Shown here: piece after piece, positions 17,249-33,249 of the stretch
Layout of the letters: each line of letters begins with the position of its first letter
How positions within the stretch are numbered: the first letter of the stretch is position 1
DNA from: Actinomycetes bacterium
GTDB taxonomy: Bacteria; Actinomycetota; Actinomycetes; Propionibacteriales; Propionibacteriaceae
Assembly (NCBI GenBank): GCA_030426725.1
Contig: JAUHXZ010000002.1
Coordinates: 5,673-69,672 of the forward strand
Reading direction: 5' to 3'
Length of the DNA stretch: 64,000 nt
Position numbers and translations under genes: made by a program
The notes under the pieces: model-generated
What the model was told of the DNA's origin: nothing
Seen by the model: only the letters and a program-made list of their open reading frames with translations
The model's database searches: none

Positions 17249-17791
17249 TTACTTACCAGCCTTTCCAGCCTTGCGGCGGACGTGCTCGCCCGCGTAGCGG
17301 ACGCCCTTGCCCTTGTAGGGCTCGGGCTTGCGGAGCTTGCGGATGTTGGCCGCAGTCTCGCCGACCAGCTGCTTGTCGATGCCCGCCACCGTGAACTTGG
17401 TCGCGGACTCGACGGCGAAGGTAATGCCCTCCGGAGCGTCGACGACGATCGGGTGCGAGTAGCCGAGCGCGAACTCGAGCTGCTTCGGGCCCTTGGAGAT
17501 CACGCGGTAGCCGACGCCGACGATCTCGAGCTTCTTCTCGTAGCCGTCGGTGACACCGATGATCATGTTGTTGACCAGGGTGCGGGTGAGCCCGTGCAGC
17601 GAGCGGTTCTCACGCTCGTCGTCGGGACGCGACACCTCGATCTGGCCGGCATCGTTCTTCTCGAGCACGATCGGGCTGGCGACGGTGAGCGAAAGCGCCC
17701 CCTTGGGGCCCTTAACGTCGACCTGCTGGCCGTCGAGCTTCACGTCGACACCGGACGGGATGGCGATGGGGAGCCTGCCAATACGCGACAT
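17249..17791 (-). CDS. rplF: 50S ribosomal protein L6
   Basis: MSRIGRLPI...[13 protein letters not shown]. Confidence 0.98.
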
Positions 17792-17817
17792 ATCTGTTTC
17801 TCCTTACCTTCGCCCGG

Positions 17818-18222
17818 TCACCAGACGTAGGCGAGCACTTCGCCGCCCACGGACTTGGACTTGGCCTCACGGTCGGTCAGCAGACCATGCGAGGTGGAGA
17901 TGATGGCGATACCAAGGCCACCGAGCACCTTCGGAAGGTCGTTTGCCTTGGCGTAAACGCGCAGGCCCGGCTTGCTGATGCGGCGGAGTCCGGAGATCGA
18001 GCGCTCGCGCGAGTCCCCGTACTTGAGCGTCAGCTTGAGCACCTTGCCGACCTGGCCCTCGACCTCGGTCTGCTCGTAGCCCGAGATGAAGCCGTTGGCC
18101 TTCAGGATCTCCGCGATGCCCACCTTGATCTTGGACGACGGCATGGTCGCCGAATCCTGGTACGCCTGGTTGGCGTTCCGCAGACGCGTCAGCATGTCTG
18201 CGATCGGATCAGTCATGGTCAT
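17818..18222 (-). CDS. rpsH: 30S ribosomal protein S8
   Basis: [33 protein letters not shown]. Confidence 0.98.
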
Positions 18223-18241
18223 GACTTGTTGCCTCTTTCTC

Positions 18242-18274
18242 GCGCCGGTTTCCGGTCATTGCCGGACCTTGCGC
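18242..18274 (-). promoter_or_regulatory. Candidate S8-binding mRNA hairpin upstream of rpsH
   Basis: GCGC-AA-GG-UCCGG-loop-CCGGA-AA-CC-G-GCGC; same architecture as the rplN leader. Confidence 0.6.
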
Positions 18275-18304
18275 AACTTGAATTCTGTGAGTGAGTGGGT
18301 CCGG

Positions 18305-18490
18305 TCACCAGGACGACTTGGTCACGCCCGGCAGCTCGCCGGCGTGGGCCATTTCGCGCAGGCAGACGCGGCAGAGTCCGAACTTGCGGTAGACCGAGTG
18401 GGGTCGGCCGCACTTCTGGCACCGGGTGTACGCGCGCACGCCGAACTTCGGCTTACGGGACTGCTTGACCTTGAGTGCTGTCTTAGCCAT
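18305..18490 (-). CDS. rpsN: 30S ribosomal protein S14 (Zn-binding type Z)
   Basis: [21 protein letters not shown]. Confidence 0.97.
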
Positions 18491-18498
18491 GGCTCAGC

Positions 18499-19128
18499 TC
18501 ACTTCTTCTTCTTGGCGTAGTACGCGGGGCCGCGCTTCGACTTCTGCTTCTTCGGATCGTCGACGGCCTTGAACGGGAAACCGAGGTGCTTGAGGAGCGC
18601 TTTGCCCTCCGCGTCGTTGGTGGCCGAGGTCACGAACGTGATGTCCATGCCGCGCACGCGGTCGATCTTGTCCTGGTCGATCTCGAGGAACATGACCTGC
18701 TCGTTGAGACCGAAGGTGTAGTTGCCGTTGCCGTCGAACTGGCTGCCGTTGAGGCCACGGAAGTCGCGGATGCGGGGAAGAGCCAGCGTCAGCAGACGGT
18801 CGGCGAACTCCCACATGCGGTCACCGCGGAGGGTGACGTGGCAGCCGATCGGCTGGCCCTCGCGCAGCTTGAACTGCGCGATGGACTTGCGGGCCTTCGT
18901 GACGGACGGCTTCTGGCCGGTGATCGCGGTGAGGTCGCGGATGGCGCCCTCGATGATCTTCGAGTCACGTGCGGCCTCGCCGACGCCCATGTTCACCACG
19001 ATCTTGACCAGACCGGGGATCTGCATGACGTTGTCGTACTCGAACTCCTCCTGGAGCGTGGGAACGATCGTCTCGCGGTACTTGGCCTTGAGGCGCGGCA
19101 TTGCGGTGGTAGCTGCGGTGGCGGTCAT
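18499..19128 (-). CDS. rplE: 50S ribosomal protein L5
   Basis: [29 protein letters not shown]. Confidence 0.98.
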
Positions 19129-19499
19129 CAGATCTCCTCACCGGTCTTGCGGGCGATGCGCACAGAACGCTCCGCCTGGTACTCCGAGCCGTCGGGGCGA
19201 CGCTTGGTGACCTCGACGCGCTTGTGGCCGACGCGGGTCAGTACGTCCTTGCCGTCGACCTTGACCACGAGCTGCACGTTGGACACGTGGATCGGGGCCT
19301 CGACGGTGATGACGCCACCCTCGACGCGGCGGCCGGTGGCGGTCTGGGACTCGCGGCGGTGACGCTTGACGAGGTTGACGCCCTGGACGGTCACGCGCTG
19401 GTTCTCGGGATCGACGGCGATGATCTCGCTGACGGTGCCCTTGTCCTTGCCCGAGATGACCTTGACGCGGTCACCCTTCTTGATGTTGAGCGATGCCAT
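19128..19499 (-). CDS. rplX: 50S ribosomal protein L24
   Basis: [25 protein letters not shown]. Confidence 0.98.
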
Positions 19500-19500
19500 G

Positions 19501-19869
19501 TCAGATCACCTCCGGGGCGAGCGAGACGATGCGCATGAACTTCTTCTCGCGCAGCTCGCGGGCCACCGGGCCGAAGATGCGGGTGCCACGGGGCTCCCCG
19601 TCGTTCTTCAGGATGACGGCGGCGTTCTCGTCGAACTTGATGTAGGAACCGTCGGCGCGGCGACGCTCCTTGACGGTGCGGACGACGACGGCCTTGACCA
19701 CCTCGCCCTTCTTGACGTTGCCGCCAGGGATCGCGTCCTTGACGGTGGCGACGATGGTGTCGCCGAGGTAGGCGTAGCGGCGCTTGGAGCCACCGAGAAC
19801 ACGGATGCACAGGATTTCCTTGGCACCAGTGTTGTCGGCGACCTTCAGTCGCGACTCCTGCTGGATCAT
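19501..19869 (-). CDS. rplN: 50S ribosomal protein L14
   Basis: [18 protein letters not shown]...[12 protein letters not shown]; SD AAGGAG. Confidence 0.98.
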
Positions 19870-19884
19870 TACTTCTCCTTGTCC

Positions 19885-19914
19885 CACCGGTTCCCGCACA
19901 TGACAGGCCTTGTG
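19885..19914 (-). promoter_or_regulatory. Candidate S8-binding mRNA hairpin upstream of rplN
   Basis: CAC-AA-GG-CCUG-loop-CGGG-AA-CC-G-GUG, 4 nt upstream of the SD. Confidence 0.6.
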
Positions 19915-20035
19915 AAACTAGAAACGAACCCCCTGGATTTTGCCAGGAGGCAACCCCCAGCTCGAGGGAGAGGGAGCCATGGCGATGCCCGGGAAAGGTC
20001 CCCCCGAAGGGGCACAGACCCAGGGCAACTTGCTT

Positions 20036-20064
20036 AGTCTATCCCACGCGACCCGACGCGTGAA
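20036..20064 (-). promoter_or_regulatory. spc operon promoter
   Basis: TTCACG-N17-TAGACT. Confidence 0.5.
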
Positions 20065-20081
20065 ATCGCAGGCCCTTCCCC

Positions 20082-20123
20082 ATCGTGGCGGCAAGAATCA
20101 GCATGCTGACTCCCCCGCACACG
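20082..20123. repeat. 42-bp imperfect palindrome, direct-repeat copy 1
   Basis: 40/42 identical to 20934-20975; core TCAGCATGCTGA. Confidence 0.9.
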
Positions 20124-20136
20124 ACGACCTCGGAAC

Positions 20137-20886
20137 ACTCTCTCGCAAAGGACGGCCGCATACCTGCATGGTCTGGTGAGCGACCTTCCCCCGGTGCTGG
20201 AGGTCTCAGCGCCATTGGCGGCCGGGCTGCGCTCCACTTCGCGGTGCACCGTGCACCGCACGCGGGTCCCGCTGTGCCCCGTGGGCGCCCCGCCCCGCAC
20301 CTCACTCGAACAGACCGTCGTCGATCTCATCGACGACGCCCCCACCGAGTCCCACGTGCTGCAGATCCTGATGAAGGCGATCCAGGCGCGCATGAGTCTG
20401 CCCCGCTTCCTGGCTCAACTCGCAGCCAACCGCCGTGTCCGGCACCGCGGCTTCGTCCTGCGGGTGACGGCGATCGCGGAGGAGGGCGTCGAGTCGCATC
20501 TCGAACTCGAGTACCGCCGTCGGGCCGAACGTGCCCACGGACTTCCACGCTCGGTGCGGCAGAAGTGGGAGCGGATCCGTGGGCGCTGGATTCGCTCGGA
20601 CAACTGGTACCCGGGGTTCGGCGTGCGCGTCGAGCTCGACGGCGAACTCGCCCATCCGGGTAGGGCCACCGCGCAGGACCTCGTCCGGGACAACGACGTG
20701 CGTCTCAAGCTGGATGAGATCACTCTGCGCTACCGCTGGCGCCACGTGTGGGACTCGCCGTGCCTGGTCGCGGGTCAGGTCGCCGCCGCGCTGCGCAAGC
20801 GCGGCTGGCCGGACGTGCCGCAGCCGTGTTCGTCCGGGTGTGTGGCCCCAGCGGTCTTCGCGTCGCTCACCGCCAGTGGGACGTGA
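20137..20886 (+). pseudogene. 5'-truncated AbiEi-like/DUF559(Vsr)-like nuclease-domain gene
   Basis: Frame opens after TGA at 20107. TLSQRTAAYLHGL lies upstream of the GTG at 20176 and matches the family motif SHxTAAxLHGL; then GVESHLE, RSDNWY, VELDGELAH, RDN, TLRYRW. N-terminal HTH region absent. Confidence 0.6.
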
Positions 20887-20993: not shown

Positions 20994-23900
20994 TCACTCG
21001 CTGCGCAGGGCCTCCACCGGGTCCTTGTGGGACGCCGCCGTCGCCGGGATGAGGCCTGCCAGCAGCGTCAGACCCATGCTGACCAGGACGAGGATGCCCG
21101 CCGCCGCCCACGGCAGCTGCGCGATGTCCGGCACGTCGAAATTGGCGTACACGATCGCGTTGGCGGGGATCGTGAGCAGGAGCGTGATCGCGATGCCGAG
21201 CGCACCGGCGACGAAGCCGACGATGAGGGTCTCGGCGTTGAACACGCGGCGGATATCGCGCTTACTGGCGCCGATGGAGCGCAGGATGCCGATCTCCTTC
21301 TTGCGTTCCAGCACCGAGATGTAGGTGATGACCCCGATCATGATCGACGACACGACCAGCGAGATGGCGACGAAGGCCACGAGCACGTAGCTGACCATGT
21401 TGATGATCTCGGTCACCGACCCCATGAGGGCCCCCACGATGTCGGTGTAGGTGATGACCTTGTCCTCGTCGCCCTGGGCGCTCATCGCGTCGTTGTACTC
21501 GTCGAGGATCCGGATGACCTGTTCCTTGCTCTCGAAGTCGATCGGGTACAGATCGATGCCCGAGGGATCGGCCACGTCCGCATAGCCGAGCCGGCTGAGG
21601 TTGCCCTCGTAGGACGCCGACTCCACGGCGGCCATGGACACCAGCAACTGGGTGAGCTCCTCCTGCGTCTTGTCCATCTGGAAGGCGGACATGAAGGCGT
21701 CCTCGTCGATGCTCATCGCATCGGACATGTTCGTGGCGAGCTGGGTCATCGCCGAGTCGAGCGATGAGGCGATCTGGTCCTGGAGAGCGAACGCGACCTG
21801 GGCGCCGACCTGGTCCATGTAGACGTTCATCACCTCGCCCATGTACGAGGCGATGGCGCCCTGGAGCTGGTCCTCGAGCGCGCCGGTGTCGATGAGGCCC
21901 ATCGCCTCGTCGAGGAGCGCCTGCCCGTCCTCGGTCTCGAGGAAGGCTGGGAAGTTGCCCGCGACGTCGGTGAGGTCGAGGTCGTTGCTGATGGTGTAGT
22001 CCAGGTATCCCCCGACGAGCCTGACGAGCAGACCGGGCTCGCCGTCGAGGCCGGCGTCGGTGAGGATCTGCTGCCCGGCGTCGGACTCGATGAACAGCGG
22101 GAAGTTCGTGGCGAGATCGGCGGGGTCGAGACCGTTGGCGTCGACGTAGGCCTGGTAGCCGTCGGAGAGCGCCGTGACCGTCTCGGAGGCCTGGTCGAGG
22201 TCGAACTCGAACTCCGGCGTGTCCGGCAGCGTGATGAGCGAGCCGAGGTCCAGGTCCCCCAGCAGCGACGCCAGGTCCAGGTCCGGCATGAGCGACGGGT
22301 CGATGTCGATCTGCGGCATCGCCAGCCCGTCGAGCCCGGAGAGGTCGAGCTGGAGTTTCGACTGGTCGAAGGTGAAGGCGTCGGTGATCGCGTCCTCGTC
22401 CACCGTGATGAGCGACGTGAGGTCCAGGTCGTCCCCGGCCTCGTCGTCGGCGAAGCTGCGGCCGGAGAACACGTTGACGGACGGCTCGTCGAGCTGGTTG
22501 CGCACGATGTCCGTGCCGGCGGCCCGGTCCATGACGTGCCGGGTGAGCGCCGGGGTGTAGTAGACACCGGTGCTGAGCACCGACGTGTCACCGGTGGGCT
22601 GCACGACGCCGACGACGCGCAGACGATCCCCCGCGTCGACGAGTTCCCGGACGAGGTCGTCGTCCCCGCTCAGGTCGGTCCACACGTCGTACTGGTCGTC
22701 GTAGGAGTAGAAGTCCGTCGCGTTGACCAGCCGGAAGTCGACGCCCATGAGGTCGTCGTAGCTGAGCGTCATCGGGTCGTCGGAGACCTGCACAGGCTCC
22801 TCGTCGACGTACTGCCGGACCATGGTGTCGAGTTCTTCCGGGTCCCGCAGTCCCATGGCGTAGAGCGCGTAGTCGCTGATGCCGCCGCTGGGGGTGAGCA
22901 CCACGACGACCTCATCGGCCGCGGAGGGCCACCGGCCGGCCTTGACGTCGTACTGCTCGTCCACGAGCGACAGGTCGTCGACGAGTTCGGAGAACACGTC
23001 GCTGCCGCCGGCCGATCCGCCGAAACCGCCCGAAGGACCGCGGAACCCCACGGCACTGAAGGTGCTGTCGGGATTGACCTGCCGGGGCTCCTCCCCCGCG
23101 TCGGAGTAGATGAGCGGGGTCACGTCGTAGGCGTACTGGATGGAGTTGACGTAGTCGTCGATGCCGCCGCCGTTGTCGTCGAAGTACGACTTGAGGGAGG
23201 CGAGGTCGTTGGTGCCGACCCCCTCGAACATCGCCGAGACCATCTGGATCTCGTGCACGTCCCCCTCGTCGTCGCGTTCGGCTGTGGAGCTCATCTCGTC
23301 CATGAGCCCGGCCGAACTGGCCAGCAGGGCGGTGAGGTCGACGCCCCGCCGTTCAATGCTCAGCGGGTACATCGAGAGTGTGTCCTCCTCGACGCCCTTG
23401 ATGTAGGCGTTGACGCCGTTGGCGAGCGCCAGGATGGCCGCGATGCCGATGATCCCGATGCTGCCCGCGAAGGACGTCATCAGGGTGCGGCCCTTCTTGG
23501 TCATGAGGTTGTTGAACGACAGCGCGATGGCGGTGAGGAACGACATCGCCGTGCGCCGCACGGCTCGCCCCGCCTCCTCCATCTCCGTCTCGGGGTCGAA
23601 GGGATGGGTGTCGGCGGAGACGGCGCCGTCGCGGAGGTGCACGATGCGGTTGGCGTAGGTCTCCGCGAGCTCGGGGTTGTGGGTCACCATGATGACCAGC
23701 CGGTCCTTGGCGATGCTCGTGAGCAGGGCCATGATCTGCACGCTGGTCATGGAGTCCAGTGCGCCGGTCGGCTCGTCGGCCAGCAGGATCTCGGGATCGT
23801 TGACCAGGGCCCGGGCGATGGCGACGCGTTGCATCTGCCCGCCGGAGAGCTGGTTGGGGTGCTTGTGGATGTGCTCGACGAGCCCGACCTCGTCGAGTGC

Positions 23901-24272
23901 CTGCGTAGCGCGCCGGCGTCGCTCGGCCGGGGACACTCCTGCCAGAGTCAGCGCCAGCTCGACGTTCGACAGCACTGTCTGGTGCGGGATCAGGTTGTAG
24001 CTCTGGAAGACGAAGCCGATGCGGTTGTTGCGGTAGGTGTCCCAGTCGCGGTCGCTGTAGCGCTCGGTGGCCGTGCCGTCGATGACGAGGTTGCCCGAGT
24101 CGTAGTGGTCGAGGCCGCCGACGATGTTGAGCAGGGTGGTCTTGCCGGATCCGGAGGGGCCGAGGATGGCGACGAACTCGTTGTCTCGGAACGCGATCGA
24201 GACGTCGTCGAGCGCCACCTGGGTGAAGTCGCCGGTGGTGTACGACTTGCGCACGTCTGTGAGCTGGAGCAT
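20994..24272 (-). CDS. Fused ABC ATPase/permease (MacB/FtsX-like) with large acidic extracytoplasmic domain
   Basis: Walker [36 protein letters not shown]; C-terminal [16 protein letters not shown] FtsX-type permease; start trimmed to MLQLTDVRK. Confidence 0.92.
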
Positions 24273-24385
24273 GGCCTTCCTCTGCACGCGCCGTGGGACG
24301 GGACACGCGGCACAGCAATAATACGGTCCTGTATCAAACTCCCGGCCGCCGGCCCCGGGGCGGTGACGGGCCCGTCGACGACGAC

Positions 24386-24414
24386 GGCCCGCCCCTCGCG
24401 GTGAGGGACGGGCC
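24386..24414 (-). terminator. Hairpin after the opuA-type operon
   Basis: GGCCCG-CCCCTC...GAGGG-A-CGGGCC. Confidence 0.5.
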
Positions 24415-24431
24415 ATCGGGCGCGTTGTCGG

Positions 24432-25343
24432 TCAGGACATAGAGGGGATGACGTCCGGGTTGGCGTCCATCCAAGCGGTGATGGCCTCGGACTCTTCGCC
24501 CTCCGCGTACTCGTTGACCACGGTGTCCTCGAGGTCACCGTACTGGTCGTTGAGGTTCAGCTCGGCGACCCAGTCGACGACCTCGGGGTACTCCTCGGAG
24601 AAGCCCTCCGTGGCCAGGAAGTGCAGGGCCTCGGAGCCACCGAGGGCACCCTCGGGATCCTCGAGGTCACGCATGTCGAAGACCGAGTTGGCCCAGAACG
24701 GACGCCACAGGGTGACGACGATCTCCTCCTCGGCCTCGGTCTTGGTCTTGAGCTCGGCCAGCATCGCGGTGGTCGACGACGTGACGAGCTCGAAGTCCTC
24801 GAGACCGTAGGCCGGGATCACGCTGTCCTGCGAGGCGGCGGTAAGGCCCGCGCCGGGCTCGATGCCGATGATCTTGCTCTCGAGGGCATCCGCGTAGTCC
24901 GGGATGTCCGCGATGGACTGGATCTCCGAGTAGGACGGCACCGCCCAGGTGAGCTTGGCGTTGTCGTAGTACGTGCCGAGGTCCTCGATGGTGTCGCCGT
25001 ACTCCTCCATGTAGGAGGCGTGGGTGACCTCGGGCCATGCCGACGGGTACACGTCGATGTCGCCCTGAGAGAGCGCGGTGTACAGCGGGCCGGCCTCGCT
25101 GAGCTCTTCGGTCTCGACCGTGTAGCCGGCGTTCTCGAGCTCGAGCTTGAGGAGGTTGCCCATGGTGCGGCCGTCGCTCCAGGAGGGGATGAAGCCCAGG
25201 GTGATGGTGCCCATCTCGCCGTCGCCGGAGTCGCCTCCGGCAGCGGCCTCGCCGCCCTCGGTCGAGGAGCAGGCACCAAGGGCGGTGGCCGCGGCCAGCG
25301 CGATTGCGCCGGCGCCGAAGCGTCGCAGTGTCTTCTTGTTCAT
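24432..25343 (-). CDS. Glycine betaine/proline ABC substrate-binding lipoprotein (OpuAC/ProX-like)
   Basis: Lipobox LGAC; SAWPEVTH, IIGIEPGAG, LWRPFW aromatic-cage residues. Confidence 0.9.
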   Translation of the reverse strand: MNKKTLRRFGAGAIALAAATALGACSSTEGGEAAAGGDSGDGEMGTITLGFIPSWSDGRTMGNLLKLELENAGYTVETEELSEAGPLYTALSQGDIDVYPSAWPEVTHASYMEEYGDTIEDLGTYYDNAKLTWAVPSYSEIQSIADIPDYADALESKIIGIEPGAGLTAASQDSVIPAYGLEDFELVTSSTTAMLAELKTKTEAEEEIVVTLWRPFWANSVFDMRDLEDPEGALGGSEALHFLATEGFSEEYPEVVDWVAELNLNDQYGDLEDTVVNEYAEGEESEAITAWMDANPDVIPSMS

Positions 25344-25365
25344 GGGGGATTTCCTTTCTTGTCGG

Positions 25366-26301
25366 TCAGGCCGCGGCTGGTGCCACTGCCTGTTCCTTGA
25401 CTTCCTGGTCCTTCATGGCCCGCTCGCGGCGAGCCCTCCACTTCGAGAGAAGGGAGTGAGGATAGTCGGCCGGGTCGCCCAGAGCGGCGGTGAAGCGGTC
25501 GAGGAAGATCGCCAGGAAGACGATCGAGAGACCGGCCTCGACACCACGGGCGGTGTTGATGGTGGACAGTGCGCCCACGACCTCCTTGCCGAGGCCGTCC
25601 GCGCCGACCATGCCGGCGATGACGGCCATCGAGAGTGCGAGCATGATGACCTGGTTGATACCGGCCATGATCGTGGGAAGGGCGAGCGGCAACTGGATGC
25701 CCCGCAGGATCTCCCAGTCGGTCGCGCCGAACGACTCACCGGCCTCGACGGTCTCCTTGTCGACGCCGCGGATGCCGAGCTCGGTGAACCGGACGCCGGG
25801 CGGCAGCGAGAAGACGATGGTGCTGAACAGGCCCGGCACGACGCCGATGCTGAAGAACACGATGGCCGGGATGAGGTAGACCATCGCGGGCATGGTCTGC
25901 ATCAGGTCCAGGATCGGCTTGACGATCGCGCTGACCCGGGCGCTCTTGGCGGCCCAGATGCCCACCGGGATCCCGATGATGATCGCGGTGAAGGTCGCGA
26001 TGAGGACCAGCGCCAGTGTCTGCATGGCCTGGGTCCACTGCCCCATGCTCATGATGAGCAGGAACGAGACCACGACCCCGACGCCGAGGCGCCAGGAGCG
26101 GACGAACCAGGCCAGCGCCGCGAAGATCAGAACCATGATCAGCGGTGGCGGCGCCAGAAGCACGTTGACGAGCGCGTCGTTGATCGCGGTGCCCGTGACC
26201 TTGATGAAGTCGAGCAGGAACCTGAGGTACTCGTTGACCCAGTCGATACCATCGGCGACCCAGTCACCGATGGGGATGGCGGGAGGGAAGTTCTCGATCA
26301 C
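25366..26301 (-). CDS. Glycine betaine ABC permease (OpuAB/ProW-like)
   Basis: LDLMQTMPAMVYLIP, EAGESFGA, GINQVIMLALSM. Confidence 0.93.
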   Translation of the reverse strand: MIENFPPAIPIGDWVADGIDWVNEYLRFLLDFIKVTGTAINDALVNVLLAPPPLIMVLIFAALAWFVRSWRLGVGVVVSFLLIMSMGQWTQAMQTLALVLIATFTAIIIGIPVGIWAAKSARVSAIVKPILDLMQTMPAMVYLIPAIVFFSIGVVPGLFSTIVFSLPPGVRFTELGIRGVDKETVEAGESFGATDWEILRGIQLPLALPTIMAGINQVIMLALSMAVIAGMVGADGLGKEVVGALSTINTARGVEAGLSIVFLAIFLDRFTAALGDPADYPHSLLSKWRARRERAMKDQEVKEQAVAPAAA

Positions 26302-27518
26302 AGGTTCGCTCCTTCGGCTTCCTTGGACGACGGCTCTTCGGTAACGCCGCCGCTGACGGCCGCGAGCAGCGTGACACGCGGAATCACGCCCGCGACGCGC
26401 CCATCGGGATCCGTCACCACGAGCGGCGAACGGTGCTGGGCCGAGCGCTCGAACAGTTCGTGGACCGGAGTGGACTCATCGACGAGGGGCATCTCGTGCC
26501 TGGTCGAGAAGGGCAGGTCGTGCCGGCCGGTCCTGACGGCCTCGGCCACGTCGTCCTCCCAGACCATCCCAACGGGCTTCTTCTGCCTGTCGACGACGAG
26601 GAGCCACGACGGCTGGTTCTCACGGAGCAGCTTGTGCGCGGCCTGCGGCCCGAGCTCGCGGCCGATCACGGCGTAGGGCGGCTCGGCGATGCTGCCGGCG
26701 GTGAGCACTCTTGTCCGGTCGACGTCGGCGACGAAGCGCGCGACGTAGTTGCTCGCGGGGTCGTTGAGGATCTCCTCGGCGGTTCCCACCTGTTCGATCC
26801 GGCCGTCGCGCATCATGGCGATGCGGTCGCCGAGACGCATGGCCTCGTTGAGGTCGTGTGTGATGAACAGGATGGTCTTGCCGAGCTTCTGCTGCAGCTC
26901 GATGAGCTGGTCCTGCATGCCACGGCGGATGAGCGGGTCGAGCGCGGAGAACGCCTCGTCCATCAGCATGATGTCGGTCCCGGCCGCGAGTGCGCGCGCC
27001 AGACCGACGCGCTGCTGCATACCGCCGGACAGCTCGCCCGGCTTGTAGTTACCCCAGCCGCCGAGGCCGACCATCTCGAGCGCCTCGTTCGCCTTGGCCT
27101 CGCGCTCGGTGCGGTTCATGCCCTGGATCTTGAGGCCGTAGGCGGCGTTCTCGCCGACGGTGCGGTGCGGTAGCAGTGCGAAGTGCTGGAACACCATCGA
27201 CACCTTGTGGCGGCGCACCTTGAGAAGCTCGGACGAGCTGAGCTTGCTCAGCGGCTCGCCCTGGATGGACATCTCCCCCGCGGTGAGCGGAAGGAGTCCG
27301 TTGACCATGCGGATGATCGTCGACTTGCCGGAGCCCGACAGGCCCATGACGACGAAGATCTCACCGGGCTCCACCTCGAAGCTCGCGTCGATGACGGCGG
27401 CGGTGTTCCCGCGCTTCTGCAGCTCCTCGCGGGTGGCGCCGGCCTGCAACTGCTTGACCGCGGCTTCCGGCCGTCGGCCGAAGACCTTGTAAATGTTCGA
27501 TGCTGAGATCGCGCTCAC
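26298..27518 (-). CDS. Glycine betaine ABC ATPase with CBS region (OpuAA/ProV-like)
   Basis: GLSGSGKST, LSGGMQQRVGLARALA, LMDEAFSALDP. Confidence 0.94.
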   Translation of the reverse strand: MSAISASNIYKVFGRRPEAAVKQLQAGATREELQKRGNTAAVIDASFEVEPGEIFVVMGLSGSGKSTIIRMVNGLLPLTAGEMSIQGEPLSKLSSSELLKVRRHKVSMVFQHFALLPHRTVGENAAYGLKIQGMNRTEREAKANEALEMVGLGGWGNYKPGELSGGMQQRVGLARALAAGTDIMLMDEAFSALDPLIRRGMQDQLIELQQKLGKTILFITHDLNEAMRLGDRIAMMRDGRIEQVGTAEEILNDPASNYVARFVADVDRTRVLTAGSIAEPPYAVIGRELGPQAAHKLLRENQPSWLLVVDRQKKPVGMVWEDDVAEAVRTGRHDLPFSTRHEMPLVDESTPVHELFERSAQHRSPLVVTDPDGRVAGVIPRVTLLAAVSGGVTEEPSSKEAEGANL

Positions 27519-27809
27519 TCAACACTCCTCTGGACAGGGGACGGATGGCCCGCAGTCCGCTCGTGTGAGCGGCCCTACAGTCCCGGCCCGCGCCCGCCGG
27601 AGCGGGGGCGATTCAGCGCACCAGTGCCCGGCCTGGCGCTCGTTGCCGGGATATCCACCGTCCCCCGCATCGTGGCGGAGGTCAAACCTCCTCGCCGGGA
27701 GTGCCGGTTTCCTGAGAGCGACTGAAGATCTCTGCACCTAGTCAGGGAAGTTGAACGTTCACGGCTAAGACTTTTCTGAGATTTCCGTTATCTTGCGGGA
27801 TCGAGCACG

Positions 27810-27851
27810 AAAAAGCCGCATGGCCGCCCCGGTGGGGCGGCCATGCGGCTT
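27810..27851 (-). terminator. Intrinsic terminator of the S10 operon
   Basis: Perfect stem AAGCCGCATGGCCGCCCC/GGGGCGGCCATGCGGCTT plus a U tract. Confidence 0.9.
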
Positions 27852-27870
27852 GGGACCGTGAGGCCGTGGA

Positions 27871-28146
27871 CTACTTGGCGCGCTCGATGATCTCGACCAG
27901 ACGCCAGCGCTTCTGCGCGGACAGCGGGCGGGTCTCCATGACCCGGACGCGGTCGCCGATGCCGGCCTCGTTGTTCTCATCGTGGGCCTTGAGGCGCGAC
28001 GACTTGGTCATGACCTTGCCGTACAGCGAGTGCTTGACCCGGTCCTCGACGAGGACGACGATCGTCTTGTCCATCTTGTCGGACACGACGACGCCCTGCA
28101 GCACCTTGCGGGAGGCGCGCTCCGTGGTGGTGGTGTCTTCGCTCAT
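27871..28146 (-). CDS. rpsQ: 30S ribosomal protein S17
   Basis: [25 protein letters not shown]. Confidence 0.98.
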
Positions 28147-32937: not shown

Positions 32938-33249
32938 TCACGGAAGCTTGATCTCGATGTCGACACCGGCAGGCAGGTCGAGCCGCATGAGCGAGTCGAC
33001 GGTCTTCGGCGTGGGATCGAGGATGTCGATCAGACGCTTGTGCGTGCGCATCTCGAAGTGCTCGCGGCTGTCCTTGTACTTGTGGGGCGAACGGATCACG
33101 CAGAACACGTTCTTCTCGGTAGGCAGCGGCACCGGGCCGGCCACCTTGGCACCCGTGCGAGTCACGGTGTCGACGATCTTGCGCGCCGAGCTGTCGATGA
33201 CCTCATGGTCATACGCCCGCAGCCTGATGCGGATCTTTTGTCCAGCCAC
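32938..33249 (-). CDS. rpsJ: 30S ribosomal protein S10
   Basis: [33 protein letters not shown]. Confidence 0.98.

Follow-up and report, generated by a model that had tools for sequence, protein, structure and literature searches.

What is the hairpin that separates rpsN from rpsH in this actinobacterial genome, and what might it do there? In the window, by which we mean the whole stretch of 64,000 nucleotides that was analysed, the genes of the spc operon lie on the minus strand, and the rpsN-rpsH gap of 82 nt contains the hairpin. The features of the locus are as follows.

19869 (start), minus strand: rplN, followed by rplX and rplE
19128..18499, minus strand: rplE
18490..18305, minus strand: rpsN, encoding a type-Z zinc-binding S14 of 61 amino acids, the 5′ neighbour of the hairpin (open reading frame and translation)
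18240..18276, minus strand: the entire hairpin, with a 6-bp basal stem, an asymmetric internal loop and bulge, a 5-bp apical stem and a 6-nt loop (minimum free energy and centroid fold; 43.2 bits with the covariance model R1 described below; covariation)
18241..18232, minus strand: the purine tract GAGAAAGAGG, the Shine-Dalgarno (SD) region of rpsH, its first two bases inside the basal stem (sequence)
18222..17818, minus strand: rpsH, encoding S8, the presumed regulated gene and ligand (translation), followed by rplF and the remainder of the spc operon

From 18274 to 18242 the minus strand reads GCGC AA GG UCCGG CAAUGA CCGGA AA CC G GCGC. The hairpin had been drawn at exactly this place in the original prediction, and both its sequence and its position were confirmed: when a 45-nt segment was folded with RNAfold, the hairpin was recovered as both the minimum free energy and the centroid structure (-18.2 kcal/mol), with a stability z-score of -2.85, and 3 of 200 shuffled sequences were equally stable. 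The basal stem can be extended to six pairs (U18276-A18240), by which it reaches into the purine tract; the tract itself, which we take to be complementary to CCUCCUUUCU at the 3′ end of 16S rRNA in actinobacteria, stops 9 nt 5′ of the rpsH ATG. A G+C-rich hairpin in an intergenic gap might be expected of a transcription attenuator or terminator within the spc operon. However, purines rather than U residues follow this hairpin, a terminator scan of the rpsN-rpsH gap was empty, and we found no conserved alternative pairing that could serve as an antiterminator. Because it is not followed by a U-tract, the hairpin is not a terminator, and we regard attenuation as a very improbable function.

The hairpin is not the product of chance. 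Eighty loci encoding relatives of S8 were fetched, including those of Streptomyces, Kitasatospora, Micromonospora, Actinoplanes, Nocardioides, Bifidobacterium, Isoptericola, Nanopelagicales and Blastococcus, and with the window they gave 81 sequences, in every one of which the element lies immediately 5′ of rpsH. A matching S14 C-terminus, the product of rpsN, also precedes the element in related loci. The consensus can be written as stem-N-A-GG-Y-(apical stem-loop of 9-63 nt)-R-(A/U)A-CC-N-stem-AGARAGG. The covariation that the original prediction had anticipated among actinobacterial rpsH leaders was strongly evident in two alignments and in the scans with the model. In the first alignment (A1), which comprises 31 sequences, was made by hand and with MAFFT, and was not fitted to any model, 92% of the cells were paired, compared with 30-46% when the 3′ partners were slid, and the covariation score was 0.335, compared with 0.148 ± 0.017 in shuffled alignments. 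The covariance model R1 was built from A1. In the second alignment (A3), which comprises 82 distinct sequences and is biased toward the structure because it was fitted to R1, 94.1% of the cells were paired against 37-47% in slid registers, and changes on both sides of a pair were seen in 82 cells against 20.6 ± 3.7 in shuffles. The unfitted alignment thus gives the same picture as the fitted one. G-U pairs occur on the sense strand (one basal pair is UG in 12 sequences), so that the conserved structure is one of RNA and not a DNA palindrome.

Scans with R1 extended this result, with the reservation that its E-values are rough and that the tallies are samples of loci. The element was matched at the expected place in 79 of the 80 loci of the first set, the match in a Corynebacterium metagenome-assembled genome (MAG) being weak. 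Among 80 loci retrieved with a mycobacterial S8 as query, which come from Mycobacteriales, Pseudonocardiales and others, 66 gave a match (Mycobacterium, Mycolicibacterium, Rhodococcus, Nocardia, Gordonia, Williamsia, Amycolatopsis, Lentzea and Nocardiopsis among them), and so did 26 of another 28 genera, a set in which no locus came from M. tuberculosis and which includes Arthrobacter, Brevibacterium, Cellulomonas, Actinomadura, Nonomuraea, Microbispora, Saccharothrix and Serinicoccus. Over the genome to which the window belongs, R1 gave one match at E <= 0.05. The sequence A-G-A-R-A-G-G directly 3′ of the stem is kept across the 82 homologues (column counts), and the SD tract starts either within the basal stem or 0-1 nt past it. 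The hairpin is therefore a conserved, covarying structure in an untranslated region beside the ribosome-binding site of a ribosomal protein gene.

Which part of the element is conserved as sequence? Among the homologues, the sequence of both stems and of the apical part (9-63 nt) is free to vary, and the invariant bases are found in the following two short stretches, numbered here by their counterparts in Escherichia coli 16S rRNA.

18265..18270, minus strand: 5′ half of the core, A-A-G-G-U-C, equated with 16S positions 594-599 (A3 column counts)
18246..18252, minus strand: 3′ half of the core, G-A-A-A-C-C-G, equated with 16S positions 639-645 (pairing and column counts in A3)

The original prediction had likened the hairpin to the S8 site in 16S helix 21 by setting AA/GG/AA/CC against AA/GU/AU/AC. 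The match of the core stood, but that register proved to be one base off, and with a shift of one base the loose likeness becomes a match at the core positions. In the best register, A18269 corresponds to A595, the pairs G18268-C18247, G18267-C18248, U18266-A18251 and C18265-G18252 correspond to 596-644, 597-643, 598-640 and 599-639, and A18250 and A18249 correspond to 641 and 642. In A3, A595, G596-C644, G597-C643, C599-G639 and A642 are invariant (82 of 82), and the pair 598-640, always pyrimidine-purine, is UA in 61 sequences and CG in 21, with no mismatch among the 82. With helix 21 (E. coli nt 588-604/634-651) the element thus shares A595, a Watson-Crick pair at 596-644, G597-C643, U598-A640 and C599-G639, as well as an odd number of unpaired bases and the two-base bulge 641-642, in which A642 is invariant. 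Beyond these positions the two differ, in that helix 21 carries a long conserved arm whereas the mRNA element carries a short and variable apical hairpin.

The likeness falls on the nucleotides that S8 recognises. The signature of an S8 site has been described as an invariant A642, a base triple of 641 with the pair 597-643, a base triple of 595 with the pair 596-644, and an internal loop of odd size (PMC4176348). In all 82 distinct sequences, the bulged equivalent of A642 stands beside the equivalent of G597-C643, and likewise in all 82 the unpaired purine A595 lies next to the Watson-Crick pair G596-C644, the predicted base-triple element. The S8 encoded in the window, which is 87-88% identical to Tessaracoccus-type records and so points to the Propionibacteriaceae, retains the STS and RVY motifs (translation), which contact A642 and G597 in the solved complexes (PMC4176348).

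We compared the element with helix 21 from genomes of the same genus; the genome of the window has no assembled 16S gene. The same-genus helix reads ...UGUC-A-CG-U-CGG...UCG-A-UA-CG-GGC..., with A-C-G-U-C at 595-599 and G-A-U-A-C-G at 639-644. The pair 596-644 is therefore G-C in the mRNA element, C-G in the rRNA of the genus and A-U in E. coli. At position 641, where the bulge begins, 79 of the 82 homologues have A and 3 have U, and the same-genus rRNA has U; the sequence GAUACC, identical to the rRNA, occurs in three homologues. In Bacillus subtilis, the rRNA has A641, and an A at this position is therefore probably tolerated. The flanking positions 594 and 645 vary (U/C in 32 sequences, C/A in 10, A/A in 9) and are mostly unpaired in the mRNA element, whereas they pair in the rRNA. 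We speculate that the prevalence of A641 and the unpaired 594 and 645 might lower the affinity for S8 below that of the rRNA, as would be expected of a feedback site.

How specific is this likeness? An R1 search of 16S loci did not recover helix 21, which indicates that the likeness is limited to about 11 core nucleotides; because R1 is dominated by the basal stem and the SD consensus, such a search is also an unfair test of mimicry, and the positions were compared directly. A loose helix-21 descriptor gave about 30 matches in the 5.8 Mb of the genome (both strands), from which the chance probability of a match in a gap of 82 nt is about 4e-4, conservation aside; by itself the bare descriptor is unspecific, and it carries meaning only when position and conservation are added. 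A loose sequence pattern that required no pairing was no commoner than its reversed control. One exact copy of AAGGUCCGCGGAAACC, core-like but without a loop, was noted about 600 nt upstream of the 16S gene of a relative (L081, positions 878-894, in genome G001); it is unique to that genome, its frequency equals that of the reversed control, and we attribute it to chance.

Position alone does not reveal the ligand of a ribosomal leader, and this element lies just 3′ of rpsN and 5′ of the genes for several RNA-binding proteins. It might accordingly be an operator for S14, L5, L6, L18 or S5, or for a regulator from outside the ribosome. The targets of L5 and L18 lie in 5S rRNA and that of S14 in the 3′ major domain of 16S rRNA, and we saw no resemblance of the element to these L5/L18 or S14 sites; instead, its core equals helix 21 at the S8 contact nucleotides. 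[quoted passage not shown] Recognition by a protein other than S8 is, in our view, distinctly unlikely.

We consider it probable, judging from the core, its conservation and its place, that the rpsH hairpin is a translational operator on the spc mRNA at which S8 is bound through mimicry of its docking site in helix 21, and we extend this reading to the copy that precedes rplN in the genus of the window (see below). In the proposed mechanism, S8 in excess over free 16S rRNA would bind the internal loop and bulge of the hairpin, where its predicted contacts are A595, the pairs G596-C644 and G597-C643, and the bulged A641 and A642. Binding would stabilise a helix that, with its 3′ strand, overlaps the SD of rpsH or borders on it; the SD would be occluded, the 30S subunit would be kept off, and rpsH would be repressed. 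The downstream genes rplF-rplR-rpsE-rpmD-rplO would probably be co-repressed by translational coupling or by mRNA decay, and through the copy at rplN the genes rplN-rplX-rplE-rpsN might come under the same repressor. Control at initiation fits, because the element always lies beside an SD and a start codon, even where that start codon belongs to a short upstream open reading frame (uORF), because loci in which rpsH is coupled directly to rpsN lack it, and because no U-tract follows it. From the conservation, the covariation, the helix-21 core and the adjacency to the ribosome-binding site, we infer, in line with the original prediction, that S8 controls its own gene here autogenously.

A hairpin that is stable by itself, and that is confined to rpsN-rpsH gaps too long for coupling, might also be a structural element that acts independently of S8. 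It could be a determinant of processing or stability, such as a hairpin that protects the 5′ end left by RNase cleavage in the rpsN-rpsH gap, or it could act as an insulator or standby structure and set the basal rate at which rpsH is translated when no longer coupled to rpsN. However, such a role would leave unexplained why at least eight loop and bulge nucleotides are invariant while both stems are free to vary, why the invariant bases coincide with the S8 determinants of helix 21, and why rplN should have acquired the same core. We therefore regard a purely structural role as unlikely.

The rplN copy is the second-best R1 match in the window (19919..19874, 14.9 bits, E = 0.011). Its surroundings comprise the following features, in the order in which they are transcribed.

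19928..19951, minus strand: hairpin GCCUCCUGG-CAAAAU-CCAGGGGGU of the rplN leader, on the 5′ side of the second S8-like site (terminator-like match)
19918..19881, minus strand: the motif for a second time, in the leader of rplN, GUUUCAC-A-A-GG-C-CUG..CGG-G-AA-CC-G-GUGGGAC (R1 and minimum free energy fold)
19880..19875, minus strand: SD of rplN, AAGGAG, which begins 1 nt past the second hairpin
19869..19867, minus strand: ATG of rplN

The minimum free energy structure of this second hairpin has the same architecture as that of the rpsH hairpin, and the earlier observation that a hairpin in the rplN leader (CAC AA GG CCUG...CGGG AA CC G GUG) repeats the unpaired bases of the rpsH hairpin on different stems was borne out. 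All 23 sequences of the same or a near genus (the window, two Tessaracoccus-type loci and others, duplicates included; 17 are distinct) contain the copy, as judged by the model or by pattern. Its core is A-GG-C...G-AA-CC, with G at 595 in one genome; its basal stems covary (CAC/GUG, CGC/GCG, CGAC/GUCG); and 92.9% of its pairs form, compared with at most 58% in slid registers. The SD lies 1-4 nt downstream of the hairpin throughout the genus, in which the N-terminus encoded by rplN is conserved as well. Among the first 80 loci, the copy was present only in the two Tessaracoccus-type ones; the second copy is conserved in the Tessaracoccus-like genus only.

In the window, the S10 operon (rpsJ at 33249 to rpsQ at 27871) lies about 8 kb from rplN (19869). 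With about 8 kb of unrelated genes between the S10 and spc operons, spc is a separate transcription unit and must have a leader of its own. The intervening minus-strand region 20994-27871 encodes an opuA-like ABC transporter of the glycine-betaine type, a fused MacB-like ABC transporter of 1140 amino acids and a nuclease-like relic. The sequence and the loop of the terminator-like hairpin GCCUCCUGG-CAAAAU-CCAGGGGGU are conserved in the genus, and its U-tract is not kept in the relatives; the CCUCC arm of this hairpin (19928-19951) could in principle pair with the SD of rplN.

How widely does the element at rpsH occur? In a sample of the phylum, it was found in 11 of 11 genomes of the same class, in nine by the model and in two by eye. 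The search of whole genomes with R1 across the phylum was insensitive, 38 candidates being scored per genome, and the regions upstream of rpsH were therefore fetched directly. Within the class, the element has also been lost or altered. It is absent from 14 of the 80 loci of Mycobacteriales and Pseudonocardiales, which have short rpsN-rpsH gaps; in L218, L221, L223, L224, L226, L229, L233, L236, L239, L245, L248, L254 and L267 the gap measures only about 10-25 nt. Among the genomes that lack it are several slow-growing Mycobacterium (M. gordonae, M. palustre and M. interjectum), Mycolicibacter algericus and one MAG of Pseudonocardiaceae. These short-gap loci look like cases of secondary loss. 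In five other Mycobacterium loci (L220, L222, L231, L232 and L238, at positions about 160-304; M. parascrofulaceum is an example), the hairpin and its SD precede a uORF of 18-29 codons, whose product reads MTA...AAMKRSSAR and whose TGA overlaps the ATG of rpsH (ATGA). The retention of hairpin and SD in front of a uORF that is coupled to rpsH would be expected if the hairpin controls the initiation of translation. At L220, two such uORFs are chained.

Other lineages have modified parts of the element. In Microbacteriaceae, the core is kept and the SD tract is different. In Corynebacterium (L033 at about 2395-2500 and L358 at about 190-300), the 3′ half GG-G-AA-CC-C-CAACG-AGAAAGG is kept, the 5′ half is A-AGU-GG-CC, and the sequence does not fold convincingly into a hairpin, so that these copies look degenerate or like a differently built variant. 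A conserved extension of 50-60 nt forms the apical part of the hairpin in Streptomyces, and in many lineages a small GGCC-NNN(N)-GGCC hairpin lies between the purine tract and the ATG; both observations were made in L009, L014-L032 and other loci of Streptomyces and Kitasatospora, at about 2402-2500.

On balance, we lean toward reading the element as an S8 operator that is ancient in the class Actinomycetes, which would make it the first feedback control of spc found outside the gamma-proteobacteria, and as a portable one: it may have been copied or re-invented at rplN when spc was split from S10, kept on the coupled uORF of some mycobacteria, and lost where rpsH became coupled to rpsN.

In E. 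coli, S8 represses the spc operon, and in a 2024 review the mechanism in other species was called unknown and phylogenetic studies were said not to have advanced (PMC10931766). In a survey of the regulators known from E. coli ribosomal proteins, the S8 RNA was confined to gamma-proteobacteria (PMC3616713), and a list of 20 new ribosomal leaders contains no S8 leader (PMC7247131). Our search of the literature found no description of an actinobacterial S8-like element. The gamma-proteobacterial operator at rplE is, like the element described here, a mimic of helix 21 in the spc mRNA at a ribosome-binding site (PMC3616713, PMC10931766), and the presumed logic is shared, in that an excess of S8 would block initiation and the downstream genes would follow by coupling. 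The two differ in their position, since the gamma-proteobacterial operator overlaps the start of rplE, whereas the element of this other phylum lies 5′ of the SD at rpsH and, in one genus, also at rplN. In the window, the rplX-rplE and rplE-rpsN junctions are tight and R1 has no match there. Nor does the gamma-proteobacterial operator have sequence homology to the actinobacterial element or an Rfam model that matches it: no family of Rfam 15 reached its gathering score in the window, and over 17700-20300, with matches admitted up to E = 10, there were only two weak and irrelevant ones elsewhere in the region. The two elements are evidently of independent origin. A further parallel is provided by the dual L1 sites before rplK and rplA in Firmicutes (Fu et al. 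2013, PMC3616713), in which, likewise, two mimic sites serve one repressor, at two points of entry into one gene cluster. There the protein and the rRNA site are different ones, whereas here the second site is confined to a genus in which spc is split from S10.

The logic of the proposed circuit, with an rRNA mimic as an autogenous operator, is therefore familiar, and its location, lineage and sequence are new. The regulation of the longest ribosomal protein operon outside E. coli-like bacteria is an acknowledged gap, for which the element offers a candidate of 40-90 nt with clear mutational predictions. Its carriers include Streptomyces, Mycolicibacterium, some Mycobacterium, Bifidobacterium, Micromonospora and Rhodococcus, genetically tractable bacteria that matter in industry or medicine. 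The element could join the databases of RNA families and thereby improve annotation. The second site, the uORF variant and the losses give a comparative handle on the evolution of the circuit and, if the proposal is true, would form a natural series of feedback rewiring.

Outside the class, 58 genomes of other classes mostly had rpsN-rpsH gaps of 0-20 nt with no hairpin, and the R1 matches in other classes did not lie beside rpsH and were rejected as false positives. In a few families of these classes, a long rpsN-rpsH gap contains a different, apparently conserved hairpin of the form GGGAAG-Y-RC-(stem)-G-N-AACCCC, followed by GGAG (L159, L163, L164 and L166 of family f16, L168 of f34, and L179 of f50; in each, within the final 60 nt or so 5′ of rpsH). 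This hairpin may be another variant of the S8 site, or it may be unrelated.
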